Shown here piece after piece: positions 10,648 through 56,216 of a stretch of 64,000 nucleotides of DNA. This DNA is from Flavobacteriales bacterium (GTDB taxonomy: Bacteria > Bacteroidota > Bacteroidia > Flavobacteriales_F > PHOS-HE28). The position numbers were made by a program, and so were the translations under genes. The stretch spans positions 6,158-70,157 of the forward strand of contig JBIIYD010000001.1 of assembly GCA_044347005.1 (NCBI GenBank). The letters run 5' to 3'. Position 1 is the stretch's first letter. Every line of letters starts with the position of its first letter. Below the pieces are notes generated by a model. The model saw nothing but the letters and a program-made list of their open reading frames with translations. It was not told where the DNA came from and ran no database searches.

Positions 10648-11667
10648 CTACGCCGCAAGTACGAAATCCACGCCCTCCACCAACCCGCGCCCCGCCAGGA
10701 AGCCCGCGATCCTATCTCCAGTACCCCGCTGACTGATGAAGCTCACCACGAAGGCCTCGCCAGCAGGCGGCAATTCCAAGTGTGGGATGAAGGAACGGCC
10801 CGGCACCCCGCTTCCCTTCACGTCGGTGTAAGCATGCACCGCGATGCCGTCCGCCTCCAACAGCGCCGCCCGCTGCTGACACAAGGCACTGGTGCCCGCG
10901 ATGATCATGGGACGGCCGTTCAACTTCCGATGCAACCACTTCGCGAGCCACTTCACCTTGGTGCTGAAAAAGGCATCCACGCTGTAGTTGGGGTGTGTGC
11001 GGCTTAGGCGATGCGCATGGTCGTTCCAGGTGAGCAGTTCCTCGGGCAGCTTCGCGAAACGCACTCCGGCTTCCATCCAACGCAACCAGAGTTCGTGGTC
11101 CTCGGGGAGCGGTCCTGTATCGTATCCGCCGTGTTGCTCCACCAGTTCGCGGCGGAACAGCACCGTGGGGTGCGCAAGGGGCGCGTCCACGAAGCGCTTC
11201 ACGTAGTGCTCGTGCGGGGAAAGGAGGTTGTTCTGCCACTGCACGAAGGCCTGCATGCCGCGGCTCTCTGGCACACTGCTGGCGAAGGCGGTGCGTGTGC
11301 CCAGCACGCCGATCTCCGGATGCGCGTCGAGGTAGGCCACTTGTTCCGCCAGGCGCTCCGCGTGACTGATGTCGTCGGCATCCATGCGGGCGATGTAGCG
11401 GCCTTGCGCACGGGCCACTCCCGTGTTCAGTGCGTGTGCGATGCCGATGCGGGGTTCGTGCAGGATGCGTATTCGTGGATCGCGCTCGGCCCAGCGTTGC
11501 GCGATAGTCGGACTTTCATCGGTGCGTGCCTGCACCGGGCTTGCCCCGGTGTTGTCGATCAGCAAGAGCTCCCATTCCGTGTAGGTCTGGGCGAACATGC
11601 TCGCGATGGCCGCATCCAGCGTCGCCGCGGCGTTGCGGAAGGGTAGCAGGATGGAGACCGGGAGCAT
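10648..11667 (-). CDS. Family 2 glycosyltransferase
   Basis: VSILLPFRNAAATLDAAIASMFAQTY...LLIDN...RMDADD (GT-A DxD). Confidence 0.75.
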   Translation of the reverse strand: MLPVSILLPFRNAAATLDAAIASMFAQTYTEWELLLIDNTGASPVQARTDESPTIAQRWAERDPRIRILHEPRIGIAHALNTGVARAQGRYIARMDADDISHAERLAEQVAYLDAHPEIGVLGTRTAFASSVPESRGMQAFVQWQNNLLSPHEHYVKRFVDAPLAHPTVLFRRELVEQHGGYDTGPLPEDHELWLRWMEAGVRFAKLPEELLTWNDHAHRLSRTHPNYSVDAFFSTKVKWLAKWLHRKLNGRPMIIAGTSALCQQRAALLEADGIAVHAYTDVKGSGVPGRSFIPHLELPPAGEAFVVSFISQRGTGDRIAGFLAGRGLVEGVDFVLAA

Positions 11668-11670
11668 GGT

Positions 11671-12189
11671 TCAGCGTTCCTTGAACAGCTTGGCCAATTC
11701 CTTGGCGGCCTCAGCGCGTTCCCGGGCACGACCCACGCGCAGCGCGTCCGACAAGGCGAGCATGGCATACAAGCGCGCGTCCTCCATGGCCGCTTCCGGC
11801 ACGCCGGGATACAGTGGCGCAATGGCCTGACCCTGTGCGTTGCCCTTTGCCGATGGCCAGACATAGGCATCATCGCTCAGGAAGCGTTCGCGCAACGCCG
11901 GTGCCGAGTGGGCCGTTGGCACGCCGCGCACCAGTCCGCCCGGCCGCACCGGGTACACATACGGCAACCCGTTCCGAAGGAAATCGAGCAGGGAAGCGCG
12001 CACCACTTTTCGTTTCGTGCCATCGAGCAGGCCGGCCAACACCGAGCGGGACAATGAATTGCTCACCTCGGCCGGACTCAAGCGAAGCGAGGCCGCCAAG
12101 TCCTTGGCAAGCCAGGGCTCCTTGCCCAAGGCCACGATCTTCAACAGCACCACCACATCCTGTGGCCGCATTTCTCCGGAAGTCTTCAT
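11671..12189 (-). CDS. Hypothetical protein, possibly winged-helix; operonic with the upstream GT2
   Basis: 172-aa ORF. Its start is adjacent to the GT2 stop. Confidence 0.4.
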   Translation of the reverse strand: MKTSGEMRPQDVVVLLKIVALGKEPWLAKDLAASLRLSPAEVSNSLSRSVLAGLLDGTKRKVVRASLLDFLRNGLPYVYPVRPGGLVRGVPTAHSAPALRERFLSDDAYVWPSAKGNAQGQAIAPLYPGVPEAAMEDARLYAMLALSDALRVGRARERAEAAKELAKLFKER

Positions 12190-12282
12190 GATTCACGATT
12201 CATGAATTGCAAATATAGTGCAGCCGCCTGTTTTCACGGAACATGCAATAACCCGACGCATTGCACGCATGATGCAACACCC

Positions 12283-13536
12283 TCACTCCCGCCCATACAC
12301 CACCAAACACTCCTTCGTCAGCGGCCACCACGGCAGTGCACGGTTCTCCTTCTTGAAGCCTTTCACCTGGCCGATGCAGGCCACCCAAGTGACGTCCAGC
12401 TCGGGTACGTGGTACATGTTCACGCCGAAGAAGCCGCTGTGGCCGATCATCGTAAGCGAGTCCAGGCCGGTGACACCCGAGGGTTTTGCATCGAAGCGGT
12501 ACACTTCGACGCCGAGCGCGTACTCGGGTGAATGGCGCGTAAGCATCGCGTCCAAGGTGGCCGGTTCGCGGAACAGTTCGCCCTTGGCCAGGCCGGTGAT
12601 GAAGCGCGCCAGATCCGCCGTGCTGGTGATGATGCCGCCGCCGCCGAACTCCACCGAGGGGTGCAGCTTGTCCGTTACACTGCGGCGACCGTGGTACTGG
12701 TGCATCATGTGGGTGTAGCTGCTGTCCCAACTGTCGGTCCAGGTGTCGCGCAGGCCCAGCGGCGTGCAGATGCGCTCCTGCAACTGCACGTTCAGGGAAG
12801 CGCCCCCCACCTGCTCCACCAACAAGGCCAGCAGCAGGTAACCCGTGTCCGTATAGTGGTAGCGGCTGCCCGGCACGGCTGTTTTGCGCTTGGCCATGCC
12901 ATGTCGCTCGTAAGCCCGCAGGATCTCGGTGGTGGTGTGCGCCTTGCTCGGCCGCAGTTGCGTGCGCAACAGGAAACGCCAGTCGTCGAAGATGTAGTCG
13001 CTGAGCCCGCCGGTATGCGCCAGCAGTTGCCGCACAGTAATGGTGTGGCCCAGGTCCTCGCCCTTCACCCGCACCAAGGGACGCACCAGCGCATCCGGCA
13101 GGTAGCGCACCACCGCACTGTCCAGACCGACGCGGCCTTCCTCCACCAGCTGCATCACCAGCACGGCCACGAAGGTCTTGGCCACGCTCGCCGTTTTGAA
13201 GCGGTATCCGGCAGGGTTGGTCGTATCCCGCCTGCTCACCTGGCCCAGCGCTCCATCGAAGCGGTAGTGCTGGCCGTAGCGGAAGTGGAACTGGAAGTTG
13301 TGCCGCTTGTGCCTGCCGGGTGGTTCCATCCAACTGGCCATTCGCTCCCAGGCCAGGGAGTCGAGGGCAGCGCGGTGGGCATCCTGGCCGTTTGCGGAAG
13401 GCAGCAGGAGGTGGAGCGCCAGCACCAGCAAGCAGCCCGCCCGGACCAGCCGGACACGCGGGCGGATGCACCAAGGTGGTGGGGGGGGCGAAGGGCCGAC
13501 CAGCATGGCAGCAAGATAGCCCAGCGCAGGCACCAT
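12283..13536 (-). CDS. Serine hydrolase of the beta-lactamase / penicillin-binding family
   Basis: SxxK motif ASVAKTF. Signal-peptide-like RVRLVRAGCLLVLALHLLLPSANG. The start could instead be 13506. Confidence 0.7.
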   Translation of the reverse strand: MVPALGYLAAMLVGPSPPPPPWCIRPRVRLVRAGCLLVLALHLLLPSANGQDAHRAALDSLAWERMASWMEPPGRHKRHNFQFHFRYGQHYRFDGALGQVSRRDTTNPAGYRFKTASVAKTFVAVLVMQLVEEGRVGLDSAVVRYLPDALVRPLVRVKGEDLGHTITVRQLLAHTGGLSDYIFDDWRFLLRTQLRPSKAHTTTEILRAYERHGMAKRKTAVPGSRYHYTDTGYLLLALLVEQVGGASLNVQLQERICTPLGLRDTWTDSWDSSYTHMMHQYHGRRSVTDKLHPSVEFGGGGIITSTADLARFITGLAKGELFREPATLDAMLTRHSPEYALGVEVYRFDAKPSGVTGLDSLTMIGHSGFFGVNMYHVPELDVTWVACIGQVKGFKKENRALPWWPLTKECLVVYGRE

Positions 13537-13667
13537 GCCCTGGACCGGGAAATCCTCGCGCACCAGACCGATGCGCCTGTCCCTTGCACGGATGTCGAAG
13601 AGGCAAGGCGACCACCGCCCGTGGGGCATGGAGTGCAGCACCGCATGCCACCCGTACTTTTGCGGCC

Positions 13668-14000
13668 ATGGCAAAAAAGGCTGCTCCTCCCTCCCCGATC
13701 ATTCCGTCCGCGTTGGAGTTGCACGACGAGGCCGAGAACCGCCAGTTCGTTACGCGGGTGGACGGCCTGCGCGCCACCGTGGAATACGACCGCGACGGGG
13801 AGCGGATCTTCCTCACCGGGCTCAACATCCCCAAAAGCCTGCAGCCCTTGGGCCTCGGCGATGCCCTGCTGGAAAGGGTGCTCACCCATGTGGAAGAGCA
13901 GAAGTGGAGGCTCATTCCCACCCACCCGGCCATCAAGGACTACCTGCGCACCCACACGGCTTGGCAGCGGTTGTTGTTGAAGGGGGTGCAGTTGCGGTGA
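13668..14000 (+). CDS. Small GNAT-fold acetyltransferase (YjdJ-like, GNAT_2 type)
   Basis: 110 aa, MAKKAAPPSPIIPSALELHDEAENRQFV...DGERIFLTGLNIPKSLQPLGLGDALLERVLTHV. Confidence 0.6.
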   Translation: MAKKAAPPSPIIPSALELHDEAENRQFVTRVDGLRATVEYDRDGERIFLTGLNIPKSLQPLGLGDALLERVLTHVEEQKWRLIPTHPAIKDYLRTHTAWQRLLLKGVQLR

Positions 14001-14024
14001 GGGGGCGCTGAGGCAGGGACTCGA

Positions 14025-15002
14025 ATGCCTGTCGCCGACCCGCCTGCTATCTTCCGCCTCATGTCAGCGGCTTCGCTTCCCGACTACCTGCGCCTCAAGC
14101 AAGGTGGCGGCAACGCGCCGCATAAGCCGATCATGCTGCTGGCCGTGCTTCGTGCCTTCGACGAAGGACTGATCATCGAGAACCGCATCGAACCTTCCGC
14201 TGAGCTGATCAATCTCTTCAATGGCTACTGGCAAGCGCTGGTGCCAACCGAAAGGCCTCAAGGCCGCTTCCATTATCCCTTCTTCTACCTAAAGAACGAA
14301 CGCTCCGGCCTGTGGACACTGCACACCCTGCCCGGGTTTGAACGTGCGCTTACACGTGGCCGCGACATCAAAAGCCTTGGCGCCCTCACCAATTTCGAGG
14401 CCTATGCCACTCTGCGCGATGATGTGTACCAACGGTGGCTCAACCCTGAATATCGCGTCGCCGCTCGTCTTGCACTAATGGCCCACTATTTCAATGGCCA
14501 GGCTCTGCCGCTCACTCTGACCGACCACCTGCGCGAGATCGAACAGCAGATCGTACACGACAGCCCTGAGACATACAAGGCCCGACAGCACCAGCTGATC
14601 CAGGTCGAAGAGGAGGAAGAACAGATCCTGCGAGGTGCCGCTTTCAAACGCAAGATCCCCGAGCTCTACGAGTACCGCTGCGCCATCACCGGACTACGGG
14701 TCCAGAACCGACGAGCCGTCAACCTCATCGATGCCTGCCACATCGTACCCTGGGCCGATTCCTTCGACGATACCATCAGCAACGGCATCGCGCTCTGCCC
14801 CAACATGCACCGCGCCTTCGACCGTGGGCTCATCAGCATCGCCGCTGACCACTCGGTACTGGTGGCCCCGGACCTCCTGGAAAGCGCGAGCAGCCATGCC
14901 ATCCGCCCCTTCGCAGGCAAGCGCCTGATGTTGCCCAACGAGAAACGCCATTGGCCCGCACCGGAGAATCTGGCTCGGCATCGGGAGCGGTGGGGGTACT
15001 AA
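14025..15002 (+). CDS. HNH_2-family endonuclease with a ~200-aa N-terminal accessory domain (restriction-endonuclease-like)
   Basis: C-terminal HNH module YRCAITGLRV...NLIDACHIVPW...NGIALCPNMHRAFDRGLISI (HNH_2 pattern). The N-terminal domain (HKPIMLLAVL...FHYPFFYLKN...WTLH) is of the kind seen in modification-dependent restriction enzymes. Confidence 0.75.
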   Translation: MPVADPPAIFRLMSAASLPDYLRLKQGGGNAPHKPIMLLAVLRAFDEGLIIENRIEPSAELINLFNGYWQALVPTERPQGRFHYPFFYLKNERSGLWTLHTLPGFERALTRGRDIKSLGALTNFEAYATLRDDVYQRWLNPEYRVAARLALMAHYFNGQALPLTLTDHLREIEQQIVHDSPETYKARQHQLIQVEEEEEQILRGAAFKRKIPELYEYRCAITGLRVQNRRAVNLIDACHIVPWADSFDDTISNGIALCPNMHRAFDRGLISIAADHSVLVAPDLLESASSHAIRPFAGKRLMLPNEKRHWPAPENLARHRERWGY

Positions 15003-15044
15003 CCAACTATTCGCGATCAAACGATCACATTTGCGAGATACAAG

Positions 15045-16976
15045 ATGCGAAGCACCCCAGGAGCAATAGATGGAGAAGGATTTGGCTGGGCAGGTAACTT
15101 CCCTGTATTGAAAGGTGCCACACTTAGCGAAGTTGTAAACGCGCTCATGAGCTTTGTGCGAGACGCTACTCCAGAGCAGATCCGTGCGTGGAACAGTTCC
15201 ATCCCTTTAGTACAGATCGAAGCGGGTAAGGTGCTCGATATTCAACCTTCTTCGAAAGAGTATGGCGCAGTGTTCGAGTACACGATGCCATACAGCCAAA
15301 GGAGGGTTGATGTGATCCTGCTTATCTCAGGGGCAGTTCTTGTTGTGGAACTGAAAGGGGACAGTAATACACGACAAGGTGACATCGAACAGATGGCAGA
15401 CTATGCCCGTGGGCTATATACGAATCATACTCTTTGCGGAGAAGACGGAGTTCGTGTACATGCACTTCTGGTGTCATACGGTATGCCAAGTGCGGAACGC
15501 AAAGAAGAGTGGTACACGCTGACCAACATAGACAAGCTGCATGAAGAGGTCATGCGGTTCGACCAACCAGAGAGAGCTTCGCCAATACCCCTTGATCGTT
15601 TTCTGCACCAAGAAAATCACCAACCTCCTCCTTCGCTGGTCCAAGCTGTTAGGGCGTACTTCTCTAAACAAGAATTGCCTAGGATCAAGCGCATTGATGA
15701 TGTCACTGGCGATGCGTTGAAGTCCGTGATAAGCGAGATACGTGAGACTCATTCAGCCAAACGGCGCAAGCTGATCCTTGTGAGCGGAGTACCCGGGGCT
15801 GGCAAGACCTACGTTGGACTCCAGATCGCACACGAGCATTTCCTCGATGACCTCTCGGAGGTAATGGAGAGCGGGTCGAAGCCATCCGCCCCTGCTGTAT
15901 TCCTCTCCGGTAACAAGCCGCTCGTGGACGTTCTTCAATACGAGATGCGAAGAGCCGGTGGTGATGGAAAAGTTTTCGTGCAGAATGTGAAAGACTTTGT
16001 GAAGCGCTACTCGACCAAGAAGGCGGTTGTCCCACCTCACCACGTTCTGATCTTTGATGAGGCTCAGCGTGCGTGGGATGCCAAGCGTGTTAAGGCGAAG
16101 CATGATGATGTGCATGCCGTTTCCGAACCTGAGTCATTCATCCGATTCGCCAGTCGTATTCCTGCGTGGTCCGCTGTTATCGGATTGATCGGCGAAGGGC
16201 AACAGATCTACACCGGTGAAGAAGGGGGAATGGACCTTTGGGCTGAGGCTATTCAGAACGGGGGTGAACAGTGGGATGTAGTCGGCCCGCCTCAATTCCA
16301 ATCCATATTTCGATCACGGGGTTTAGCGTACACACCTATTGCTCCTTTACACCTTGCGCGTTCCGTTCGTTTCCATTTCGCTCATGGCCTTAGTGAATGG
16401 TCAGGGGGAGTGGTCGATGGTCACCTAAGTACAGGAGAACTATCCCTTATGGTCGACCACCTTTGGCAGCAGGGGTACCAGATCCGCATTACGCGCAACC
16501 TACATAAGGCTAAAGAGTTTCTTTGGGAGAAGTACCGACTACAGCCGGACGCTCGCTACGGGATGCTCACCGGTGGACGCGACAAGGGTCTGCAAGATCT
16601 TGACTTGAACAAAGTGAACACGCGAACATTCCGTGCAGGTCCGTGGTACGCTGACCCCGAAAGTTCTCCCAGTTCATGCAGGCGCCTCACAGATGCGATC
16701 ACGGAATTCTCCGCACAAGGCCTTGAGCTGGATCATGCACTCTTGGTCTGGGGAACCGACTTGATCCGCAAAGCAGGGGTATGGGATGATGCACTCGCAA
16801 TGCGCTATCTCCGCAAAGGCGATGTGGCTGATCCACTCCAGCTTAGATTGAATGCTTATCGGGTCTTGCTAACACGTGGACGTGAAGGTGTGCTGATCTG
16901 TATCCCCCAACAGATAGCCGAATTGGACGAGACATTCGACTTCCTCATGGCAGCCGGATGTCGTCCGTTGGAGTGA
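15045..16976 (+). CDS. NERD/PD-(D/E)xK nuclease fused to a DUF2075 (Schlafen group-3-like SF1) P-loop ATPase/helicase
   Basis: N-terminal RRVDVILLISGAVLVVELKG (D...ExK). Walker A VSGVPGAGKTYVG. DEAQ box VLIFDEAQRAW. Noticeably lower GC than the flanks. Confidence 0.8.
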   Translation: MRSTPGAIDGEGFGWAGNFPVLKGATLSEVVNALMSFVRDATPEQIRAWNSSIPLVQIEAGKVLDIQPSSKEYGAVFEYTMPYSQRRVDVILLISGAVLVVELKGDSNTRQGDIEQMADYARGLYTNHTLCGEDGVRVHALLVSYGMPSAERKEEWYTLTNIDKLHEEVMRFDQPERASPIPLDRFLHQENHQPPPSLVQAVRAYFSKQELPRIKRIDDVTGDALKSVISEIRETHSAKRRKLILVSGVPGAGKTYVGLQIAHEHFLDDLSEVMESGSKPSAPAVFLSGNKPLVDVLQYEMRRAGGDGKVFVQNVKDFVKRYSTKKAVVPPHHVLIFDEAQRAWDAKRVKAKHDDVHAVSEPESFIRFASRIPAWSAVIGLIGEGQQIYTGEEGGMDLWAEAIQNGGEQWDVVGPPQFQSIFRSRGLAYTPIAPLHLARSVRFHFAHGLSEWSGGVVDGHLSTGELSLMVDHLWQQGYQIRITRNLHKAKEFLWEKYRLQPDARYGMLTGGRDKGLQDLDLNKVNTRTFRAGPWYADPESSPSSCRRLTDAITEFSAQGLELDHALLVWGTDLIRKAGVWDDALAMRYLRKGDVADPLQLRLNAYRVLLTRGREGVLICIPQQIAELDETFDFLMAAGCRPLE

Positions 16977-17036
16977 GCCGATCTGGTCAGTCAACATTCC
17001 CTGGCATTTTCGGTCAAGGTTCCGTACCCTGGTCGA

Positions 17037-17285
17037 ATGCTTACCGACAAGGAATACGTCATTCGCCTCAACAGCTTCGATCTGGGGCAACTCATCGATG
17101 GCTTGGAGGTTCGTGCCCGTGCGTGGCGCGATACGGCAACCTACCTGCACACCGGCGAAGTACCAAGCGCGGACTTCGTGATGGAGGAGTGCCGTGATGC
17201 GGAGGAAGCTGAGCGGCTGGCCGAGCACTATGAGCGGATCAGGGATCTCATTCACCTGCAACAGAAGGAGCAGGACCGGGCATGA
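17037..17285 (+). CDS. Hypothetical small acidic protein (orfA), co-directional with the DUF2075 gene
   Basis: 82-aa ORF 60 nt after the upstream stop. Its stop overlaps the next start (ATGA). Confidence 0.4.
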   Translation: MLTDKEYVIRLNSFDLGQLIDGLEVRARAWRDTATYLHTGEVPSADFVMEECRDAEEAERLAEHYERIRDLIHLQQKEQDRA

Positions 17286-17629
17286 ATCCGCGCTATCGGC
17301 GGGAACTGGTCCGGTTGGGCTTTACCATCCCCGAGGAGGCTACCTACGTTGTCCATTGCATGTGGCGGCCACCCAAGGGCCAATGGCCTGCGCTGGGTGC
17401 TCGTCCGCGACCTGTATGGGTGCAGCTCAACGACACCGGAGACCATCGATCGGCTGCGATCGAGGCTTGCTTGTTCTTGATCGCACAGCATCGCGGGAAG
17501 GCGACAGCTTTATCGGTAATGGCCGACAACTGCCATCCCCAGATCATCAACGACGTGTGTTTCGACTGGAACTGGTATGACGGGGTGGTCACGTTCGGGG
17601 CTGAGGTGGTGGAAGTAATATGGTCATGA
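17282..17629 (+). CDS. Hypothetical small protein (orfB), translationally coupled to orfA
   Basis: 115-aa ORF. ATGA overlap with orfA. Confidence 0.4.
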   Translation: MNPRYRRELVRLGFTIPEEATYVVHCMWRPPKGQWPALGARPRPVWVQLNDTGDHRSAAIEACLFLIAQHRGKATALSVMADNCHPQIINDVCFDWNWYDGVVTFGAEVVEVIWS

Positions 17630-17822
17630 CCGCGAGTTCGCGCGAGCGATCGCAGCGGAAAGCCCACAGCCGACTGAGGCACGAGGGCGGCGAGGACTTT
17701 CCTACGGCAAGCAGGCTTGCAGCTAATAGCCTGACCGCCGTCAGGCAGGCACCCAAGCCCCCCTTCACGATCCTTAACGCCCCACCGCACCCACCCGCGC
17801 CCAAAGCCCGCTATGTTCGGGC

Positions 17823-19022
17823 ATGCCAATGCGCTACCTGCTGCCTGCGCTGCTCTTGTGGGCCTGTACCAACGGAGGCGCGGCACGTCCGCAAGAGGCG
17901 GAGGCCACGGCGCCCACGGAGCGCTACCGGCTGGAGGCGGCGGACCTACGCGTTTGGCGCACGGTGGATACCACGGAGGCAGAAGCCCGGGCGGATTTGG
18001 CCTGCCTGCGGCGCTTCTTCGTGAACAAGCTGGACAGCGGCGCAGCGCAGGACTTCTGGTGGCGGCCGGATGTGGAGCTCTACGTGCGGCCCTATGAGGA
18101 CCTGCTGTACACCGAGTACGACAGCGAGGCGCGCCTGCGCTACCTGCCCACGCTGATGGAGCGGCGCCCGTTGCCCGATGGCACCCGGCTGCTGCGCGTG
18201 AAGTGGGCCGCCCCGGACAGCACGGGCAGGGCGGAGGAGGTTCGGCAGGTCTTCGACTTCCTTGCGCGCGACACGCCCGAGGGCACGCGCCTGGCGATGC
18301 CGCTGGCGTGGAACACCGCCACATGGCCGCGGCACCAGGTGGGACCGATCGGCTACATCGTGTCCCCCGAGCGGCGTTTCGACCCTGCCGTGGCCCGTGC
18401 GCAGGAGCAGGACGTGGAGGCGCTGGGGCGCTTCTTCGGCATCTCGCCCTTCCCCCTTACGTACTACAGCTTCAAGGACCCGGCGGACCTGTTCCGGGCG
18501 CGGGGCTTCCTGGTACACCCGGCGATGTACGCGCACGCCACGGGCGGTCGGCTGGACCATGGTGGGCAGGTGTACGCGGGCAACAACAGCGAACGCTACA
18601 CCCACGAGATCGTACACGCCTTCATTTTCCGCAGCCTGGGCCGCAAGGGCATGGACCTGCTGCACGAAGGACTGGCCACCTGGCTGGGTGGCAGCAACGA
18701 GCACCCCTATGCCTGGCACCGCGCACAACTGCAGCGCATGCTGGCCGAGCAACCCGACCGTGACCTGCGACAGGACCTGAACGTGTACAACAGCGACTAT
18801 TACGCGGACGAGACCAACGTGGCCTACACCATTGGCGCCTTGGTGGTGGAGCACATCCTGCGCACGGCGGGTAAGGAGGCCCTCTTCGCGCTCTTCGCCG
18901 AGGAACACACGGACCTGAGCGCCTTGGAACAGCACGGCATCCGCGAGGTGGAGATCAATGGGTGGGTGCGGGCGGCGCTGGCGAAGGAGGCGTTGCGATC
19001 AGATGATCAGAAAATGAGATGA
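17823..19022 (+). CDS. Putative secreted/lipoprotein zinc metallopeptidase-like protein (HExxH)
   Basis: Signal peptide LLPALLLWACTNG. HEIVH motif (YTHEIVHAF). Confidence 0.55.
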   Translation: MPMRYLLPALLLWACTNGGAARPQEAEATAPTERYRLEAADLRVWRTVDTTEAEARADLACLRRFFVNKLDSGAAQDFWWRPDVELYVRPYEDLLYTEYDSEARLRYLPTLMERRPLPDGTRLLRVKWAAPDSTGRAEEVRQVFDFLARDTPEGTRLAMPLAWNTATWPRHQVGPIGYIVSPERRFDPAVARAQEQDVEALGRFFGISPFPLTYYSFKDPADLFRARGFLVHPAMYAHATGGRLDHGGQVYAGNNSERYTHEIVHAFIFRSLGRKGMDLLHEGLATWLGGSNEHPYAWHRAQLQRMLAEQPDRDLRQDLNVYNSDYYADETNVAYTIGALVVEHILRTAGKEALFALFAEEHTDLSALEQHGIREVEINGWVRAALAKEALRSDDQKMR

Positions 19023-19131
19023 TCAGAAAATGGCGCTGGGCGATGCAGTGCCTGTAGGCTACGCACCACCCCCGACCGAAGCGCGCATTCGATCTTCTGA
19101 TCATCTGATCATCTCATTTTCTGATCCTCTC
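18997..19131. repeat. ~130-bp imperfect inverted repeat built from GATCAGATGATCAGAAAATGAGATGATCAG units
   Basis: Left arm gatcagatgatcagaaaatgagatgatcagaaaatg. Right arm cattcgatcttctgatcatctgatcatctcattttctgatc. Directly precedes the PIN toxin gene. Confidence 0.75.
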
Positions 19132-19143
19132 AGGATCGCCCCC

Positions 19144-19587
19144 CTACCGCTTCCTTTTCACCAACCTCAGCGCCTGCTTCGCGCTCAGCCGTTTTACGCC
19201 GATGTGGCCGTCGTAGTCGGGGTCGCGGCTTACGATGGCGTCGAGGGTTCCGGCGGAAACCACGGCCCAGTATTGGGCGCCGTCCTCCAGGTCACCGAAA
19301 GTGCTACCCGCGCTCTGCAGGAAGTGGTTCGCATCCAAGGGCACCAGCTCCACACAGGCCAACAGATCTTCAAGGGTGCGACGGACGTGCTCGCGCAGGA
19401 GGCCCTTCTTAGCTGCATCCTTGCGCTGCAGGTGGTAAAGCACAATGCCGATACTGAGGGAGGTGGTGAGCAACTTCACTTGCCGTTGTTCCCCCAGGGC
19501 CAATAGAAGCAGCGCCTCCTCGGGGTCATGCGGGCGTTCGAGGATGGCATCCAGCAAGATGTTGGCGTCCACGAAGAGCCGCATCAT
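19144..19587 (-). CDS. vapC: PIN-domain toxin (VapC-like)
   Basis: MMRLFVDANILLDAIL. PIN acidic residues. ATGA overlap with the upstream antitoxin. Confidence 0.8.
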   Translation of the reverse strand: MMRLFVDANILLDAILERPHDPEEALLLLALGEQRQVKLLTTSLSIGIVLYHLQRKDAAKKGLLREHVRRTLEDLLACVELVPLDANHFLQSAGSTFGDLEDGAQYWAVVSAGTLDAIVSRDPDYDGHIGVKRLSAKQALRLVKRKR

Positions 19588-19874
19588 GCGCGGTCCTGTT
19601 TTTCGCGCTTACGGCGCTCGTAGGCCTTGGTCTTGCGCAATTCCGCACCGCCGCGGTCATCGGCCTCGAAGTCGGCTTCGGTGACATGCTTGGCCCAGAA
19701 CCCACGCCATTTCAGGATGTTAGCCTCACTTTCTCCTTCTGGGGTGGGTTGTTCGTCGCTCTTGTCGGCAAGGTTCTCCACCAGTTCGCTGATGCTCTTG
19801 CCTTTGCGAGCGCTGGCCTTGCGGAGCATGGCCACCTTGCGCCGGTCGATGCTGAGGGTGAGCTTGGTCTTCAT
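19584..19874 (-). CDS. Type II antitoxin partner of the PIN toxin (copy 1)
   Basis: 96 aa, basic N-terminus MKTKLTLSIDRRKVAMLRKASARKGKSISELV. Overlaps the toxin start. Confidence 0.7.
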   Translation of the reverse strand: MKTKLTLSIDRRKVAMLRKASARKGKSISELVENLADKSDEQPTPEGESEANILKWRGFWAKHVTEADFEADDRGGAELRKTKAYERRKREKQDRA

Positions 19875-19946
19875 GCATTGTCCGCCGAAGCTTTAGCGTA
19901 GGCGGGGGTATTGCGAAGTTACGTGTCCGGTGATACGTATACTGGA

Positions 19947-20279
19947 TCAGATCAGGGATCTGGGATCTTTCCGTTCGCTTGGGAATTGGGCGGGGTGCTT
20001 ACCACTGGCCTTCTGCATTCGCTCGTAGGCCTTGGTCTTCCGCAATTCGGCGCCGGCCCGGTCATCGGCCTCGAAATCGGCTTCGGTGACATGCTTGGCC
20101 CAGAATCCACGCCACTTGAGGATGTTGTGCTCGCCTTCTCCTTCTGGGGTGGGTTGCTCTTCACTCTTGTCGGCGAGGTTCTCCACCACATCGCTGATGC
20201 TCTTGCCTTTACGCGCGCTGGCCTTGCGCAGCATGGCCACCTTGCGCCGGTCGATACTGAGGGCGAGCTTGGTCTTCAT
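19947..20279 (-). CDS. Orphan tandem duplicate of the antitoxin (copy 2); divergent C-terminus, no cognate toxin
   Basis: Near-identical to copy 1 up to ...RKTKAYER. It then reads through into GATC-repeat sequence where copy 1 overlaps the PIN start. Confidence 0.6.
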   Translation of the reverse strand: MKTKLALSIDRRKVAMLRKASARKGKSISDVVENLADKSEEQPTPEGEGEHNILKWRGFWAKHVTEADFEADDRAGAELRKTKAYERMQKASGKHPAQFPSERKDPRSLI

Positions 20280-20432
20280 GCATTGTCCGCCGAAGCTTGT
20301 GCGTAGGCGGGGTATCACGAAGATACGTGTGCGGTGATACGTACGCAGATCTGATCATCCCATTTCTGATCGGAGCATCTATATCGGGTAACGGGTCCGC
20401 TACCGTAGCTTTGGTTTCCATTGCAGTAACCG

Positions 20433-20669
20433 ATGAGCACCGACAGCATGCGCATGGAATTGATCCGCTGGCTGAGCCAGTTGGATGACAAGGGGCTGCT
20501 TGCTTCCCTGCTCCACTTCAAGCAGGCCAACGAGTCCCATGACTGGTACGACAGCCTGACCGCTGAGCAACAAGCTGCCATTGCCGAGGGCGAAGCGGAC
20601 ATCAAGGCTGGTCGCGTGCGTTCTTCCGCGGAAGTGTGGGAAAAGTATGGCCGCACTCCGAAGAGTTGA
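20433..20669 (+). CDS. Type II antitoxin (ParD/RelB-like, addiction-module component)
   Basis: 78 aa. Overlaps the downstream ParE/RelE gene. An alternative start is at 20454. Confidence 0.65.
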   Translation: MSTDSMRMELIRWLSQLDDKGLLASLLHFKQANESHDWYDSLTAEQQAAIAEGEADIKAGRVRSSAEVWEKYGRTPKS

Positions 20670-20940
20670 GTGGTCCGCCCGAGCGGAACGCGACTTGGAC
20701 CGGCTTTACGCCTTCGGGCTGGAGCGCTGGACCAAACGCGAGGCCGACCATTTGCTGGATATGGTGCAGGAGTTCGAAGCACTGATCGCGCGTTGGCCGA
20801 ACGGCTTCAAGCGTTCGCAACGCAACAAGCATCATCGGCTGGGCTTCGTTCACCGCAACACATCGGCGGTGTACCGCGTGTATCGCGACCGGGTGGTGAT
20901 CGTGACCATGTTCGACAATCGCGCCGATACCGCGTGGTGA
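20647..20940 (+). CDS. parE: ParE/RelE-family toxin
   Basis: MAALRRVEWSARAERDLDRLYAFGLERW...VYRVYRDRVVIVTMFDNR, the typical ParE/RelE fold pattern. Confidence 0.75.
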   Translation: MAALRRVEWSARAERDLDRLYAFGLERWTKREADHLLDMVQEFEALIARWPNGFKRSQRNKHHRLGFVHRNTSAVYRVYRDRVVIVTMFDNRADTAW

Positions 20941-20972
20941 AGAGTCCGATCATCTGATCGGCCTCGCGTCGG

Positions 20973-22775
20973 CTACTCCCCGCTCGCAAGCCCCCTCATC
21001 ACCACCTCCGCCTTTTTCGCGCCCACCTCGGCCACCACATCCTCGGGCATGGCTTCGCGGATGCCTTTGATGCTGCCAAAGCGTTTGAGGAGTTTCTGGG
21101 CGGTACCGGGGCCGATGCCGGGGATCTCCTCCAGGCCGGTGCGCACGATGCGTTTGCTGCGTTTGCCACGATGGTGCGTGATGCCGAAGCGGTGCGCCTC
21201 GTTGCGCATGTGTTGGATGACCTTGAGGCTGCTGCTGCGCTTGTCGATGTGCAGCGGGTACGGATCGCCGGGGAAGTAGATCTCCTCCAGCTTCTTGGCG
21301 ATGCCGATGATGGCGATCTTGCCGCGTAGACCGAGCCGGTCCAGCGCTTCGAGGGCGGCACTGAGCTGGCCCTTGCCACCATCGATGACGATGAGCTGGG
21401 GCAATGGTTCGCCTTCGGTGACGAGCCTGCTGTAGCGGCGCTCCACGGCCTCGGTCATGCTGGCGAAATCGTCCGGCCCTTCCACCGTGCGGATGTTGAA
21501 GTGGCGGTAGTCCTTCTTGCTGGGCTTGGCGTCCTTGAACACCACGCAGGCGCTCACGGGGTCCGTGCCCTGGGTGTTGCTGTTGTCGAAGCACTCGATG
21601 TGGCGCGGCAATTCGTTGAGGCGCAGGTCCTGCTTGAGTTGCTCGAGCGTGCGCGTGGTGGCACCCTCGGGGTCGGTGAGCTTCTCCTGCTTCTGCTTGT
21701 CCAGCATGAAGTAGCGCACGTTGCGTTCGCAAAGTTCCAGGAGTTTCAGCTTGTCGCCGCGTTGGGGCACGGTGAAGCTGAGGCCGGGCACCTCGATCTC
21801 GGGGTCGAAGGGCACGATGGCCTCGGGTGCGAGGCTGTGGTAGCGGGTGCGCAGTTCGGCGATGGCGAGTTGCAGCATCTCCACATCGCTTTCCTCCAGG
21901 CGGCGCTTCAGTTCGATGGTGATGCCATGCACCACGGCGCCGTCGATCACGCGCATGTAGTTGACGTAGGTGCTGGCGGGGTCGCTCACCAGGCCGTAGA
22001 TGTCCACGTCGCCGATGTCGGGGTTCACCACGATGCTCTTGCTGTGGTAGCTCTCCAGCCGGTCGATCTTCTGGCGGTATTCCTCGGCGGCCTCGAACTC
22101 GAGCTTTTCCGCGTGGGCGTGCATCAGGGGCTTCATCACCTTCAGCAGGCCGCTCACACGCCCCTTCACGATCTCGCGCACCTGCACCATGTTGGTGGTG
22201 TACTCGGCTTCGTCCTGCAGGCCTTCGCAAGGGCCTTTGCAGTTGCCGATGTGGTACTCCAGGCAGCGTTTGAACTTCTTCTGCTCGATGTTCTTGGGCG
22301 AGAGATCGTAGTTGCAGGTGCGCAGTTTGTAAAGCTTGTGTACCAGGCCCAGCACGGTCTTCATGGTGCGCACGCTGGCGTATGGGCCGAAGTATTCGCT
22401 GCCGTCGTGCTCCGGGTTTCGCATGCCTTCCACGCGGGGAAAACGTTCGTTGCGGATGCGGATGAAGGGGAAGCTCTTGTCGTCGCGCAGCAGGATGTTG
22501 TAGCGCGGCTGGTGCTCCTTGATCAGCGAGTTCTCCAGCAGCAGCGCCTCGAATTCGGTGGGCACATGGATGACGCGCAGGTCCACGATCTTGCGGACGA
22601 GCAGGCGTGTCTTGCCGTCGAAGTGTTCCTTGGCGAAATAGCTGCCCACGCGGTTGCGCAGGTCCTTGGCCTTGCCCACGTAGAGGATGACACCTTCGGC
22701 ATCGAAGAACTGGTACACGCCGGGTGTGTGCGGCAACAGGCGGACCTTTTCGCGGACGTCGAGGGGGGAGGACAC
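20973..22775 (-). CDS. uvrC: Excinuclease ABC subunit C
   Basis: GIY-YIG N-terminus HTPGVYQFFDAEGVILYVGKAKDLRNRV. UvrC homology region. C-terminal HhH. Confidence 0.95.
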   Translation of the reverse strand: MSSPLDVREKVRLLPHTPGVYQFFDAEGVILYVGKAKDLRNRVGSYFAKEHFDGKTRLLVRKIVDLRVIHVPTEFEALLLENSLIKEHQPRYNILLRDDKSFPFIRIRNERFPRVEGMRNPEHDGSEYFGPYASVRTMKTVLGLVHKLYKLRTCNYDLSPKNIEQKKFKRCLEYHIGNCKGPCEGLQDEAEYTTNMVQVREIVKGRVSGLLKVMKPLMHAHAEKLEFEAAEEYRQKIDRLESYHSKSIVVNPDIGDVDIYGLVSDPASTYVNYMRVIDGAVVHGITIELKRRLEESDVEMLQLAIAELRTRYHSLAPEAIVPFDPEIEVPGLSFTVPQRGDKLKLLELCERNVRYFMLDKQKQEKLTDPEGATTRTLEQLKQDLRLNELPRHIECFDNSNTQGTDPVSACVVFKDAKPSKKDYRHFNIRTVEGPDDFASMTEAVERRYSRLVTEGEPLPQLIVIDGGKGQLSAALEALDRLGLRGKIAIIGIAKKLEEIYFPGDPYPLHIDKRSSSLKVIQHMRNEAHRFGITHHRGKRSKRIVRTGLEEIPGIGPGTAQKLLKRFGSIKGIREAMPEDVVAEVGAKKAEVVMRGLASGE

Positions 22776-52210: not shown

Positions 52211-53980
52211 CTATTCCTTCGCTTGGGTTTCCGGGGCGTTCCGTTGCAGGATGTGCAGGCGCGCCTTCTGCAAGGAAAGCGGCACCCGCGCTGGGTTCCA
52301 AATGTAGATCGCCACACGTTGCGCCTCCACCGGTATCGGCGGCAATACGTGGGTAATGCGCAAGGGCAGGCCCTGCCGCCCGCGTGGATACTGCCCGATC
52401 GACCGGGAACCGTAGTAGGCGTGTCCCATGTCCGCGTTGTTCACTTCCACGACCAGGAACGGACCTTCGGCAGGCCTTCGATCCAGCAGCAGCACCCCGC
52501 TGAGGTCGAACGAAAGCGCACGTCCCGTGAGTGTCGCGGTGGCCGGTAGCGGCAGTTCCCGGTATTCGGCATCGGAGGTGGCGAACGAAATGCTGGTATC
52601 CAGGACGGTCGTGGTGCTGTGCGCCGCATTGCGGACCATCAGGGTCAAGCCACCCGGACCTTCCAGCACGGTATGGAATCGTGTGGAAGCGTCATCGGCC
52701 TGCCACCGGGAAACCAGCAGCAGGTCCGCTTCTTCCAAGGCAATGTGGTCGGTCTGAAGGGTCGTCAGCGGCTCTTGGTCGAACAGGCGTCCGTATTCCC
52801 ACGAAGGCATTTGCCGCACTCCGCCTCCAACAACGAGGCCCCGCCCCGCCTGCTGTTGGCGAAGAAGCACCTCCGCTTCGAATTTCGGGGGTATGGCGCC
52901 ATCGCCCGAGGAACGGGTGGTACCCACATGGATCCCGAGCACCATGTGAAGCGCGGGAAGCAACAGCAACAGCGCCAGCCAACGGCGATGAGCGCCAGCA
53001 ACGATGGCCCGGTCCAACGCAAGGCCCCAGCCCAGCAGGAACAAGGGCAACCACGGAAGCGCGTCGTGGACCAGGTCAGTGGGTGCTTGGAAGGCGAAAT
53101 ACAACGAGGGCCACCCAACGAGCAATGCGAGCGTGGACAACAACACCGTGCGTGGCCCACCGCCGGAATACGGCCCCCCAACGAGCCCGAGCCATGCCAT
53201 GCAACCTAAGGACAGCACGAGCGACCATACAAGCCATTGTGCGTGTGTCGCAAAGACCAGGTCCATCCACGTTCGGAGCTTTTCGGCTACGTACCATTCG
53301 GCATCCGTGCCCTTCGCGTCGAAGCCCATGTGGAGCAACAGCCCGGAGAGGACCGCCACCAAGGCCCAGGTCCCCAGTCTTGTCCACCGATCGGCAGCAC
53401 CCGAACGAAGCACCACCACAAGCACCGCCAATTCGCCCACCAGCCACAAAGGCTGCATGGCCGTTGCGGAAAAAGCCACGGCCACGAAGGCGAGCGCGGC
53501 CCGGAGCACGTGACGCGAACCGGGTTCATGGGGTATGCGGCCCAGGTGCCAGAGCGCCATGAAGGTGAACGCCATGGCCAGTGACTGCCCGCCCGCCAGG
53601 GCGAACATTTCCACTGCAAAGGGCATGAGCAGGAGCGCGATCCACAGGCACCAGCGGAGCAGCACATCCTGCACGAGACCGCCCAAGCGGAAGGCATATC
53701 CGGCAAAGAGCACGAAGGCCAACAACGAGAGGACCCGCTGGGGGAACAGGGCCGGACCCACCAGCGCGGTGGAGACCATGGCCCACCAACCGGACAAAGG
53801 ATGGTCAATGGGCTGTACAGCGGGCTGTACCCAGGCGAAAAAGCGCAAGGCCTCCTCGTGGGTGATGGGTACCACGAATGCGCGCACCACCAGGTGAACG
53901 GCCATCAATGCTGCCAGCGCCGCGAAAAGCAGCGCCTGCATGCGTGTGGTCGGCTCCGTGGGCCTGAACGTGTCGGTCAT
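52211..53980 (-). CDS. Polytopic membrane protein (GT-C-like paralogue)
   Basis: Start taken at MTDTFRP, which overlaps the upstream stop by 4 nt. The long ORF extension upstream is likely spurious. Confidence 0.5.
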   Translation of the reverse strand: MTDTFRPTEPTTRMQALLFAALAALMAVHLVVRAFVVPITHEEALRFFAWVQPAVQPIDHPLSGWWAMVSTALVGPALFPQRVLSLLAFVLFAGYAFRLGGLVQDVLLRWCLWIALLLMPFAVEMFALAGGQSLAMAFTFMALWHLGRIPHEPGSRHVLRAALAFVAVAFSATAMQPLWLVGELAVLVVVLRSGAADRWTRLGTWALVAVLSGLLLHMGFDAKGTDAEWYVAEKLRTWMDLVFATHAQWLVWSLVLSLGCMAWLGLVGGPYSGGGPRTVLLSTLALLVGWPSLYFAFQAPTDLVHDALPWLPLFLLGWGLALDRAIVAGAHRRWLALLLLLPALHMVLGIHVGTTRSSGDGAIPPKFEAEVLLRQQQAGRGLVVGGGVRQMPSWEYGRLFDQEPLTTLQTDHIALEEADLLLVSRWQADDASTRFHTVLEGPGGLTLMVRNAAHSTTTVLDTSISFATSDAEYRELPLPATATLTGRALSFDLSGVLLLDRRPAEGPFLVVEVNNADMGHAYYGSRSIGQYPRGRQGLPLRITHVLPPIPVEAQRVAIYIWNPARVPLSLQKARLHILQRNAPETQAKE

Positions 53981-55806
53981 TCGTGGTCCGGGGTCAGGGT
54001 TTGTTTTCCGACACGCCCGTCGACCATGGCGATCGGTCGATGGTCGGGGTTCCAAAAGTAGAGGACGCGGGTGTCGGCATCGGGCACGGCAGGCATCCTC
54101 ACGAGCAAGCGCAGGCGCTCTCCGTTCCAGTGCGGTGAAATGCTCGCTATCCGGGTGGTGTGGTAGTGCAACAGTTCCTCGCCCAGCTTCTGCTCCACCA
54201 CCAGATGCAGATCGAGGAACGACGCACCCGAGGCCAGGGAACACTCCACGGTGAACAAGAAGTCGACGCTGCCATCCGACCCCTCCGAACGCCACAATTC
54301 CAGGAACTCGCGGTCGCTTTGGGCGAACGAGAACGTGGACCATTGCACGGGCCCGAGGACCAGCGGGGAAGCGCGTTCCAGCAGATGCAGGCCAGGACCG
54401 GGTGCAACGTCCACTTCGCGGTAGCCCACGAGCGCCTGCTCCAGAAAACGCTCGTCCACGATCCGGATGTCGGTAGGGGCGTTGGGAAAGCCTTGTGCAT
54501 CGGGTGGGTTCAGCACAACACCCTGCAGGCGTGCCGCGTAAGGCAGCGCCAAGGCGAGCTGGTGGTACGTGCCTATCGTAAGTGGTCGATCGACACCGGC
54601 CTGACGTTCACCGATCCACTGAACGAAGCGGGCGGGTACCGATTGTTCTGGCCATAGGACCGTATGGTCCAGGTTCGCCGTGATCACACTGCGAAAAGGC
54701 AGTACCAGCAGGATGGCCGCAGCCCAACGCCACCGTAGGTCGGTGCTGGCCAACGCATCCGCAGCGAATGCCAGGAGCAGGATGGCCAGAGGAAGCAAAT
54801 GGAGGGCGGCACGGTCCTCCGGGTAATTGACGCCAAGGACCAAGGCCATTCCGATGCGGCTGGCCACATCGGCCCAAAGCAGGAATGCGACCAACAACAA
54901 GGGCGTTCGCCATGTGCGGCCCACCAACAAGGCCATACTGGCCGCGATGACCGCCATGGCCGAAACGATGAGCAAGGCGGGGTGCAGGCCACCGAGCACG
55001 TACTTGGACAACGACGAAAGGGTCACCGCAACGAACCCGTCCAACGAGCCGTGGTACAGCAGCCCCCTACGCTTCATTTCCCACGAAAGCAGGATACCCA
55101 CGAGCAAGGGGAGCAAGCCCAACAGGACCCAAAGGATGAAGGAGCGAACAGGGAAGCGACCCGCGCTACGCCCGCGCCGTACGAGGTCGAAGGCCAGAAG
55201 CGCTACGACCATGGCCCACAGCGGCACCATGGAAAGCACGGCGAAGTCGGCCAGCGCGAGGCCGATCAGGATCCGTGCAAGATGCTTGTCCGATGGAAGA
55301 GCGCGATAGCGCAGCATACCATCCACCGCAAAGGCGAGAAAAGCCATGCCTAAACCATATCCACGGAACAGGGAAAAGAACTCGAGCAGGAAAGGACAAG
55401 CGAGCAAGGCCGACCACATGCACCAGCGCACGAGCCGGTCCTGCAACAGGAGGCCGACCCGGTACACCGACCATGCGTAAATGGGAAAGGCCAATACACT
55501 GCCCACCCTTGAACCAAAGAGCGAAAGCCCCCAGAACTTGTACCCCAGCACCCCGATGGCCGAACTCAGGAAGTGGTTGCCGGCGTCCCAGAGCGCCACG
55601 TAGGGTAGAAAAGTCCCTCGCTCAAGGAACCAATAGAGCGAAGTGCTTTCGTCATGCACCCAAGGGACAAGTGCTGCACGCAGAATGACGTAAGTCCATA
55701 TGACCGAGGCAATGGTTACGAACGCCTTTCGTTCACCGGAACTTCCAATGTGGAAATGAACGGATGTGGAGATGTGGGCTGCCGACACGCGATCTGCGAG
55801 GTTCAC
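53977..55806 (-). CDS. Polytopic membrane protein (GT-C-like paralogue); N-terminal ~20 codons overlap a repeat and may not be coding
   Basis: Hydrophobic multi-TM ORF. C-terminus ...VLYFWNPDHRP resembles the KLYLWN paralogues. Confidence 0.45.
   Translation of the reverse strand: MNLADRVSAAHISTSVHFHIGSSGERKAFVTIASVIWTYVILRAALVPWVHDESTSLYWFLERGTFLPYVALWDAGNHFLSSAIGVLGYKFWGLSLFGSRVGSVLAFPIYAWSVYRVGLLLQDRLVRWCMWSALLACPFLLEFFSLFRGYGLGMAFLAFAVDGMLRYRALPSDKHLARILIGLALADFAVLSMVPLWAMVVALLAFDLVRRGRSAGRFPVRSFILWVLLGLLPLLVGILLSWEMKRRGLLYHGSLDGFVAVTLSSLSKYVLGGLHPALLIVSAMAVIAASMALLVGRTWRTPLLLVAFLLWADVASRIGMALVLGVNYPEDRAALHLLPLAILLLAFAADALASTDLRWRWAAAILLVLPFRSVITANLDHTVLWPEQSVPARFVQWIGERQAGVDRPLTIGTYHQLALALPYAARLQGVVLNPPDAQGFPNAPTDIRIVDERFLEQALVGYREVDVAPGPGLHLLERASPLVLGPVQWSTFSFAQSDREFLELWRSEGSDGSVDFLFTVECSLASGASFLDLHLVVEQKLGEELLHYHTTRIASISPHWNGERLRLLVRMPAVPDADTRVLYFWNPDHRPIAMVDGRVGKQTLTPDHE
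55747..55778. repeat. Inverted copy of the CCACATCTCCACAT motif (left arm flanking the four-helix-bundle gene)
   Basis: aatgtggaaatgaacggatgtggagatgtggg is the reverse complement of cccacatctccacatccgttcatttccacatt. It matches sequence at 56286-56350. Confidence 0.7.
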
Positions 55807-56216
55807 TGGACCTTGTTCATACGCGCCTTGATGATGATGCTTGCAAGGATGTTCCGGATGCTCTGTAGGTCCTCCAGCATTCCTTCCTCATAAGGAAGCT
55901 CATCCGCGTACTTGCATAGTTTTAGCCAGAACCGTGTTTCGCTGGCTTCCTTGGCGGAGACCTTCATCTTGTGGATGAAGTCATCGCGACTCTCCGCATC
56001 CTGGGCCTCATGCACATTGGCTCCGATGGATGTGCCGCATTTGAAGAGTTGCCGCGAAGCATCATACCAGCCCGAATCACGCAAGCCTTTGCTGAAGCGG
56101 ACCACACGTAGTGCGAATTCAAAACTCTTGTCAACGATCAAATTGCCAGTGGTCCGGTCAAAACCATATTCCGCAGGTCCTTCTTGAAATTCCCAAGTAT
56201 CCTGGTTGTTGTCCAT
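55803..56216 (-). CDS. Four-helix-bundle protein (TIGR02436 / '23S rRNA intervening-sequence protein', Avd-like family)
   Basis: FEFALRVVRFSKGL...CGTSIGANVHEAQDAES...SAKEASETRFWL matches the family pattern. Confidence 0.75.
   Translation of the reverse strand: MDNNQDTWEFQEGPAEYGFDRTTGNLIVDKSFEFALRVVRFSKGLRDSGWYDASRQLFKCGTSIGANVHEAQDAESRDDFIHKMKVSAKEASETRFWLKLCKYADELPYEEGMLEDLQSIRNILASIIIKARMNKVQ

Follow-up and report, generated by a model that had tools for sequence, protein, structure and literature searches.

Between the core genes uvrC and GT2, the latter coding for a GT2 glycosyltransferase, an uncultured Flavobacteriales bacterium carries an accessory island of 9.3 kb, which was analysed here within 64 kb of contig JBIIYD010000001.1 (assembly GCA_044347005.1), hereafter referred to as the window. 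The island includes a cassette of four genes. The first codes for an HNH endonuclease with a sulfur-binding-like domain (SBD-HNH), the second, hereafter the central gene, for a nuclease-helicase, and the last two, s82 and s115, for small proteins. The central gene and the short spacer in front of it make up an AT-rich tract, 15003-16976. We consider it likely that this tract is a foreign nuclease-helicase gene that occupies an exchangeable slot of the cassette, in a defence hotspot beside uvrC. Loci from other genomes and metagenomes, with which the window was compared, are referred to by L-numbers.

Based on its sequence, the central protein can be described as a putative N-terminal PD-(D/E)xK-type nuclease fused to an SF1-like helicase of the DUF2075/Schlafen-group-3 type, an architecture similar to that of Nhi. 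The helicase part matches Pfam PF09848 (DUF2075) over residues 241-621 with an E-value of 2.4e-53, and its Walker A (G248-T255, GVPGAGKT) and Walker B (I336-Q341, IFDEAQ) motifs are invariant in 20 homologs. So are D89, E102 and K104, which form the N-terminal signature D89...E102-x-K104. The Pfam match in this N-terminal region is a weak one, to HSDR_N, the nuclease domain of the type I restriction R subunit (residues 84-122, E 0.041). An earlier note on this DNA had given the gene the label NERD; this label was dropped, since the Pfam NERD model (PF08378) matches neither the whole protein at E<=0.01 nor residues 1-239 at E<=10. In a scan against PADLOC the protein matches PDC-S41 only (E 1.7e-104, 348 bits; residues 39-642 aligned to positions 31-653 of a model of 657) and no Nhi model, and a literature search for the term PDC-S41 found no mention of it. 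A sequence search of the PDB with a 20-member profile of the protein gave no relative, and PHROGs and NCBIfam gave nothing for the gene. By analogy with Nhi, we infer a defence function, which would consist of the degradation of invading DNA, possibly together with the HNH enzyme encoded upstream, which would sense modified DNA.

The tract has a GC content of 52.4%, compared with 61.7% for the rest of the window, which served as the sole composition reference. The lowest-GC sliding window of equal length starts at 15001, and relative to 30 non-overlapping windows of equal length the tract has a z of -5.3. The tetranucleotide divergence peaks at 15001 as well, with a z of 6.6. The central gene alone has 52.6% GC, and its GC at the first, second and third codon positions (GC1, GC2 and GC3) is 0.634, 0.418 and 0.526, respectively, while the 55 crude gene calls that formed the reference set have means of 0.632, 0.420 and 0.785. 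For GC3 this corresponds to a z of -4.7 against all 55 calls and of -5.7 if only genes of 300 aa or more serve as the reference. An index similar to the codon adaptation index, built on the window genes, is 0.404 for the central gene and 0.649 +/- 0.068 for the reference (z -3.6). The compositional contrast is purely synonymous, GC1 and GC2 being equal to the window means. At fourfold-degenerate sites the central gene is near unbiased (A.24, C.23, G.23, T.30), compared with A.09, C.43, G.38 and T.11 in the genes outside 11668-20972. The earlier note had described the gene and its spacer, by eye, as an AT-rich island. The sequences that it quoted lie where it placed them, the tract is the lowest-GC stretch of its size, and sliding GC, GC3, codon index and tetranucleotides all mark it as an outlier; the mid-60s that the note gave for the remainder were somewhat too high.

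The left edge of the tract is abrupt: at the HNH stop codon, GC over 60 nt drops from 0.65 to 0.47. The right edge is at about 17100-17120, inside s82, some 130 nt past the end given in the earlier note. The spacer was rightly called AT-rich (GC 42.9%); it is 97.6% identical to that of locus L016, with 1 mismatch, and it travels with the central gene. An antisense open reading frame, 15753-16115, had been chosen over the real central gene by a crude codon-model gene caller, because of the foreign codon usage of this gene, and was removed.

To compare the site with its relatives, related metagenome loci were retrieved with uvrC as an anchor. Orthologs of GT2, 66-77% identical, adjoin uvrC in these relatives, and the gap between the two genes measures 74 nt (L105) or 88 nt (L113), versus 9.3 kb in the window; in relatives with such a short gap, UvrC is 73-81% identical. 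A single Zn-ribbon gene lies between uvrC and GT2 in L103, L106 and L112. Other loci carry other cargo at this position: a PIN gene in L110, a DUF6364-PIN pair in L100, a nucleotidyltransferase and a C5 methyltransferase in L107, and in L102 a MazF-like toxin (assigned by eye, with no domain search). In L016, the cassette is located directly between the Zn-ribbon gene and uvrC. Besides the four-gene cassette, the window island carries an apparently orphan PDC-M21A gene, genes for a beta-lactamase-family protein, an acetyltransferase and a 399-aa protein without family match, a PIN/DUF6364 pair with another DUF6364 copy, and a gene that is ParE-like. Apart from the central gene, which alone is compositionally conspicuous, the island genes have a GC3 of 0.69-0.87. 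The whole island, 11668-20972, is accessory and mostly native-like in composition, so that the central gene, which the earlier note had named as the least that was acquired, is one part of a larger accessory segment and not the only one.

The family of the central protein was found in Bacteroidota, Verrucomicrobiota, Planctomycetota, Chloroflexota, Bacillota and archaea, and distant homologs occur on Bacillus megaplasmids and viral contigs. A fragment of a central gene that is 75% identical was noticed on a 2-kb contig (L022, JAGQPF010000766.1) binned to a Planctomycetales metagenome-assembled genome (MAG); it is either a cross-phylum transfer or a binning error. The horizontal origin of the central gene is well supported independently of its composition, because the 9.3-kb segment is missing at the orthologous junction, the slot holds another gene or nothing in other loci, and the family spans several phyla.

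The slot itself is delimited by comparison with L178, where homology to the window ends in the HNH gene and resumes just 5' of s82, and where a reverse-strand HNH_2 gene fills the gap. The gene order in L178/L179 is HNH(+), HNH(-), s82, s128, in which HNH(+) is the ortholog of the window HNH gene. In L180/L181 the order is HNH(-), s82, s120, and only the reverse-strand HNH_2 gene stands beside the small-gene pair. L013 and L038 have the nuclease-helicase and the pair without an HNH gene, and L052 and L054 have a DUF2075 protein that is 29% identical and divergently oriented beside the pair. The order of the window, HNH, nuclease-helicase, s82 and s115, is found in L016, L011 and L018. As a separate observation, the nuclease-helicase homolog of L182 (4022-5954) and L183 is split into two reading frames, of 229 aa and then of 378 or 344 aa, with identities of 68% and 83% to the central protein of the window. 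Intact s82-s116 genes still follow this homolog, which is probably a decaying copy.

Alignment with L016 shows a mosaic. Between the two, the synonymous divergence (dS) amounts to 0.11 in the central gene, 0.22 for the 3' end of uvrC, which is the one core marker available in L016, and 0.35 for the 3' end of the HNH gene. It rises to 0.84-2.0 over HNH codons 1-225, 3.1 over s82 codons 26-82 and 2.3 for s115. The sharp drops of identity at 14643 and 17100 are best read as recombination breakpoints, and the right one coincides with the right compositional edge.

In the reading that we favour, the nuclease-helicase gene and its short upstream spacer would fill an exchangeable slot between the SBD-HNH gene and s82-s115. 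The gene would come from a family that moves between phyla and would keep the ~50-57% GC of this mobile gene pool. Its cassette partners would be restricted to the lineage and nearer to host composition; among the sampled loci, s82 and s115 have no detectable relatives outside high-GC Flavobacteriales-type MAGs. Exchange would proceed by homologous recombination via two anchors, the 3' end of the HNH gene on one side, and the element upstream of s82 together with the 5' end of s82 on the other. The composition step would be sharp and almost gene-sized because the exchange runs through these conserved anchors. The gene would stay AT-rich as nothing has pushed its synonymous sites to host GC since its arrival. 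The direction and the number of the transfers, as well as the part of recombination in them, we infer from these patterns. The features of the locus are listed in Table 1.

Table 1 Features of the nuclease-helicase cassette and its surroundings, in window coordinates.
Feature	Coordinates	Strand	Description
GT2 glycosyltransferase	10648..11667	-	core gene left of the island; Pfam Glycos_transf_2, E 8e-28
Accessory island, 9.3 kb	11668..20972	.	between GT2 and uvrC, which are adjacent in related genomes
PDC-M21A match	11671-12189	-	PADLOC, E 8e-46; 3 nt from GT2; absent at that position in relatives
SBD-HNH endonuclease, 325 aa	14025..15002	+	first gene of the cassette; GC3 0.733
Tract shared with L016	14643..17100	.	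96-97% identity; sharp drops to 50-78% outside
Replaceable slot	14924..17024	.	blastn of the window against L178 aligns only 14115-14923 and 17025-17241
AT-rich spacer, 42 nt	15003..15044	+	between the HNH stop codon and the nuclease-helicase ATG (15045)
Nuclease-helicase gene, 643 aa	15045..16976	+	sole gene of the AT-rich tract; second gene of the cassette
Conserved non-coding element, ~37 nt	17000..17036	+	directly 5' of the s82 ATG; CTGGC..TTT..TA.CCTGG..ATG
s82, 82 aa	17037..17285	+	predicted two-helix hairpin; constant partner of variable nuclease genes
s115, 115 aa	17282..17629	+	predicted alpha/beta fold; start overlaps the s82 stop by 4 nt
32-nt element TCGCGCGAGCGATCGCAGCGGAAAGCCCACAG	17638..17669	+	closely follows the stop codon of s115; recurs in two other cassettes
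uvrC	20973..22775	-	core gene right of the island; Pfam domains; 73-88% identical orthologs, conserved lpxD-uvrC synteny

Several observations weigh against this reading. On the left side the compositional edge, at 15003, and the breakpoint, at 14643, do not fall together, the former being 360 nt further right. GC1 and GC2 of the central gene are those of the high-GC host and not those of a donor with ~50% GC. The four-gene order is old, as the central genes of L011 and L018 are 83% and 74% identical to that of the window, and in every locus with this order the central gene is the AT-richest of HNH, nuclease-helicase and s82. After one insertion in the past, equilibrium should already have been reached, and therefore continual re-assortment or selection is needed. 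No donor with higher identity and a matching genome composition was found. As for a vehicle, plasmid and phage records hold only relatives that are 28-34% identical, tRNA and Rfam scans of the 64-kb window gave nothing, a search for repeats, direct or inverted, at the bounds of the gene, the cassette and the island was negative, and integrase, transposase or other mobility domains are absent among the island genes.

A variant of the same reading, which we regard as possible though with less than even probability, is that the cassette entered as one heterogeneous unit, the arms of which were later replaced by higher-GC alleles from related genomes. The four-gene order shared by L016, L011 and L018 fits this variant. 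In L016 low GC runs on through s81 (GC3 0.65) and s115 (0.50), compared with 0.71 and 0.69 for s82 and s115 in the window, and the arms have a dS of 0.8-3.1 versus 0.11 for the centre, as arm replacement would give. However, the same pattern would result if the central tract had passed from one of the two lineages to the other, and the direction of exchange is not polarisable with the present loci. Moreover, the HNH gene has a GC3 of 0.72-0.74 in the window, L016 and L018, and the left arm is not visibly AT-rich in any sampled cassette.

The composition of the family was surveyed in 79 independent loci by comparing the GC of the gene with that of its flanks. GC is lower in the family member than in its flanks at 73% of these loci, and at 83% of those with a host GC of at least 57%. 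The median difference between gene and flanks is -4.0 points (Wilcoxon p 1.5e-7), and the -9.2 points of the window gene fall in the lowest 13%. Within cassettes that have diverged to 58-98% identity, GC3 of the central gene is lower than that of s82 in 8/8 and lower than that of the HNH gene in 4/4. Since the split from L016, the polarised synonymous changes comprise 7 AT>GC and 8 GC>AT, compared with ~79% AT>GC expected from neutral drift to host GC3 (binomial P 0.006; a test of low power, with distant outgroups). The earlier note had concluded that the acquisition was recent. Its horizontal part is borne out by the absence of the gene between uvrC and GT2 in relatives, the slot swaps and the multi-phylum family. 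Its recency is not: L016 has the gene at the same site, and the dS of 0.11 that separates the two copies is no more than that of uvrC. Furthermore, since the family is AT-rich in most loci and the polarised synonymous changes show no drift towards GC after the L016 split, AT-richness does not date the transfer, and it should not be read as recency.

These data also bear on a second alternative, that selection keeps the central gene AT-rich, either because non-optimal, AT-ending codons throttle a potentially self-toxic nuclease-helicase or because they keep its DNA recognisable to a silencing system. The persistence of low GC3 in diverged cassettes, the balance of synonymous changes, the restriction of the difference to synonymous sites with GC1 and GC2 equal to host means, and the composition step exactly at the gene boundary rather than at a recombination breakpoint are all in keeping with it. 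Nevertheless, it seems quite unlikely to us. The GC of family genes follows that of the host (r 0.91, slope 0.86), and in some members, such as L013, L026 and L035, it equals or exceeds that of the flanks, so that there is no universal AT requirement. Fourfold sites are near uniform and are not enriched for particular rare codons. Selection would also change only the reason why the gene stays AT-rich, while the evidence of empty sites and slot swaps for its horizontal origin stands. Lastly, we give practically no credence to an artefact, in the form of a chimeric metagenome assembly or of chance, because, although the organism is known only from metagenome assemblies and chimeras give sharp composition steps, six contigs, each obtained from another sample and together drawn from three sources (JGI, ENA and Logan), are 99.8-100% identical across both tract junctions, L016, L011 and L018 share the gene order, and four measures with z of -4.7 to 6.6 make the tract the most extreme stretch of the window.

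The left neighbour of the nuclease-helicase gene in the cassette is an HNH gene. The HNH protein matches Pfam HNH_2 (E 1.1e-13), the PADLOC HNH model (E 3e-20) and the HNH endonuclease of PDB 6yex (E 3e-6), and its residues 25-144 match PDB 8h0l, the solved sulfur-binding domain SBDHga1 (E 4e-7). The NCBIfam model PT-DNA_restrict gives an E-value of 2.8e-29 and 102 bits, which is under its cutoff of 180 bits. As read in the sequence, the protein carries H33-K34 and Y84-P85, corresponding to the HK and YP motifs. HK/HR and YP motifs have been described as sulfur-recognition residues (PMC7461809). The upstream gene resembles a diverged relative of the phosphorothioate-dependent type IV restriction enzymes, and no dnd or ssp genes were noticed within the 64-kb window. 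We also observed that the two parts of this gene have diverged differently. In the sulfur-binding part (window 14025-14700 against L016 815-1450) the nonsynonymous divergence (dN) is 0.16-0.39 and dS is 0.8-2.0, and in the catalytic part dN is 0.013 and dS is 0.35, far below the values of the sulfur-binding part. This pattern looks like the swapping of a specificity domain.

To the right of the slot, s82 and s115 have no match in Pfam, NCBIfam, PHROG or PADLOC. Their AlphaFold2 models have a pLDDT (predicted local distance difference test) of 89.7 for s82, a helical hairpin, and 88.1 for s115, an alpha/beta fold; the s115 model has no match at E<=0.001 among the PDB and BFVD structures. Homologs form 65 clusters for s82 and only 10 for s115, mostly from Flavobacteriales MAGs. 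The non-coding element directly upstream of s82 was aligned over 10 loci (the window, L011, L013, L016, L017, L018, L038, L178, L180 and L182), in which CTGGC, TA and CCT.G are invariant. It is kept whatever gene precedes s82, and it is 100% identical to that of L016. It may be a promoter or operator of s82-s115, as well as a recombination anchor. Its TA..CCTGG part is located at -12 to -5 from the s82 ATG, a position that we take to resemble the -7 promoter box of Bacteroidota and that would imply a leaderless transcript. A sigma-54 promoter was considered for this element and rejected, as the -12 GC is off the required spacing in the 10-locus alignment. A scan of 13500-18000 for sigma-70 promoters and terminators found none above shuffles, with a promoter consensus that may not apply to Bacteroidota, and folding of the two intergenic spacers and three homologous spacers gave z values of -0.9 to 0.04, with no signal of RNA structure. 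Behind s115, the 32-nt element has copies in L038 (7729-7760, 2 mismatches) and in L182 (6617-6648) / L183 (4 mismatches). These copies also lie behind s115 homologs, in cassettes that are otherwise diverged. This element may be the right end of the cassette or a regulatory site.

The uncharacterised s82-s115 pair is a more interesting side result than the AT-rich tract. With low confidence, we propose that high-GC Flavobacteriales have a hitherto undescribed type of modular defence locus in which nucleases are swapped, and that the pair and its upstream element are its constant core. If so, s82-s115 would be a docking and regulatory module, or a sensor and antitoxin module, beside which nuclease effectors are swapped by recombination. 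These effectors would be the SBD-HNH, the reverse-strand HNH_2 and both the close and the 29%-identical nuclease-DUF2075 proteins, and the AT-rich tract would be the one currently loaded.

Some other features of the window were noticed. No PDC-M21 model matched any of the other island proteins scanned against PADLOC, and the PDC-M21A gene, 11671-12189, appears to be an orphan component. The spacer between the gene of the 399-aa protein and the PIN gene contains a dense inverted repeat, 18997-19130, with arms of 27-35 nt that are up to 96% complementary. It is built on an 8-nt periodic TCTGATCA/GATCAGA unit, related copies of which are found at 20350 and 20945. A direct duplication of 293 nt, 91% identical, at 19615-19907 and 20020-20312 covers the antitoxin-like DUF6364 gene, which is hence present twice, versus one PIN toxin gene. 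Outside the island, a second and smaller compositional outlier, 55803-56216 on the reverse strand, has 51% GC and a GC3 of 0.62, and its product was assigned (E 6e-17) to the family named '23S rRNA-intervening sequence protein'. The gene beside it, 53977-55806, has a poor codon fit too.

The AT-rich tract is an ordinary pattern for mobile defence genes. It offers a standard case in which a sharp drop in GC3 flags such a gene, and which can be checked through empty sites and cassette swapping. The cassette, with its SBD-HNH enzyme, its Nhi-like nuclease-helicase and its pair of small proteins, is also a compact and testable set of parts, which could show whether Nhi-like and modification-sensing nucleases cooperate and what the roles of the small proteins are.

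Previously, Nhi (SERP2475) from Staphylococcus epidermidis was reported to need both its nuclease and its helicase activities and to limit the accumulation of phage DNA (Bari et al., bioRxiv 10.1101/776245), and an 'Nhi-like' protein of the same architecture is anti-phage (Millman et al., bioRxiv 10.1101/2022.05.11.491447). Like these proteins, the central protein is a single polypeptide that has a DUF2075 (PF09848) SF1 helicase domain, is encoded among defence genes and carries at its N-terminus a nuclease, here a putative one, of the PD-(D/E)xK type. However, Nhi acts alone, while the central gene, known from its sequence, stands between the SBD-HNH gene and two small genes, and no membership of the characterised Nhi family was detected with PADLOC. 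The upstream gene can be compared with the SBD-HNH enzymes SprMcrA and EcoWI (PMC7461809, PMC6224610), with which it shares an HNH_2 domain at the C-terminus and, as far as its sequence shows, a sulfur-binding-like N-terminus with HK and YP motifs. These enzymes work alone and not beside a nuclease-helicase, and the upstream gene has diverged from them (102 versus 180 bits). In the McaZI group, a modification-dependent endonuclease adjoins a DUF2075 NTPase in a defence island, and cooperation between them has been proposed (PMC6765204). Similarly, the genes for a putative modification-dependent endonuclease and a DUF2075 protein are directly side by side in the window. In the McaZI group, however, the endonuclease is a DUF3427-DUF3883 fusion and not an SBD-HNH enzyme, and cooperation is a proposal in both cases. 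Finally, the central protein matches the PDC-S41 model over nearly its full length, but PDC-S41 is a single-gene candidate, and the HNH, s82 and s115 companions are outside its definition.

The window island can also be compared with genomic islands in general. Classical compositional and defence islands at hotspots have atypical GC3 and codon usage, are absent from the same site in relatives, are flanked by core genes and carry variable defence and toxin-antitoxin cargo; to the same background belongs the amelioration model, reportedly that of Lawrence and Ochman. The window island differs from such islands in that it has no integrase, tRNA or direct repeats and in that the signal is confined to one gene of the 9.3 kb. 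It has in common with them an atypical GC3 and codon usage, empty sites in relatives, core flanks and a variable cargo, and it can be classed as a compositional island of the classical kind, situated in a hotspot for defence and toxin-antitoxin genes.

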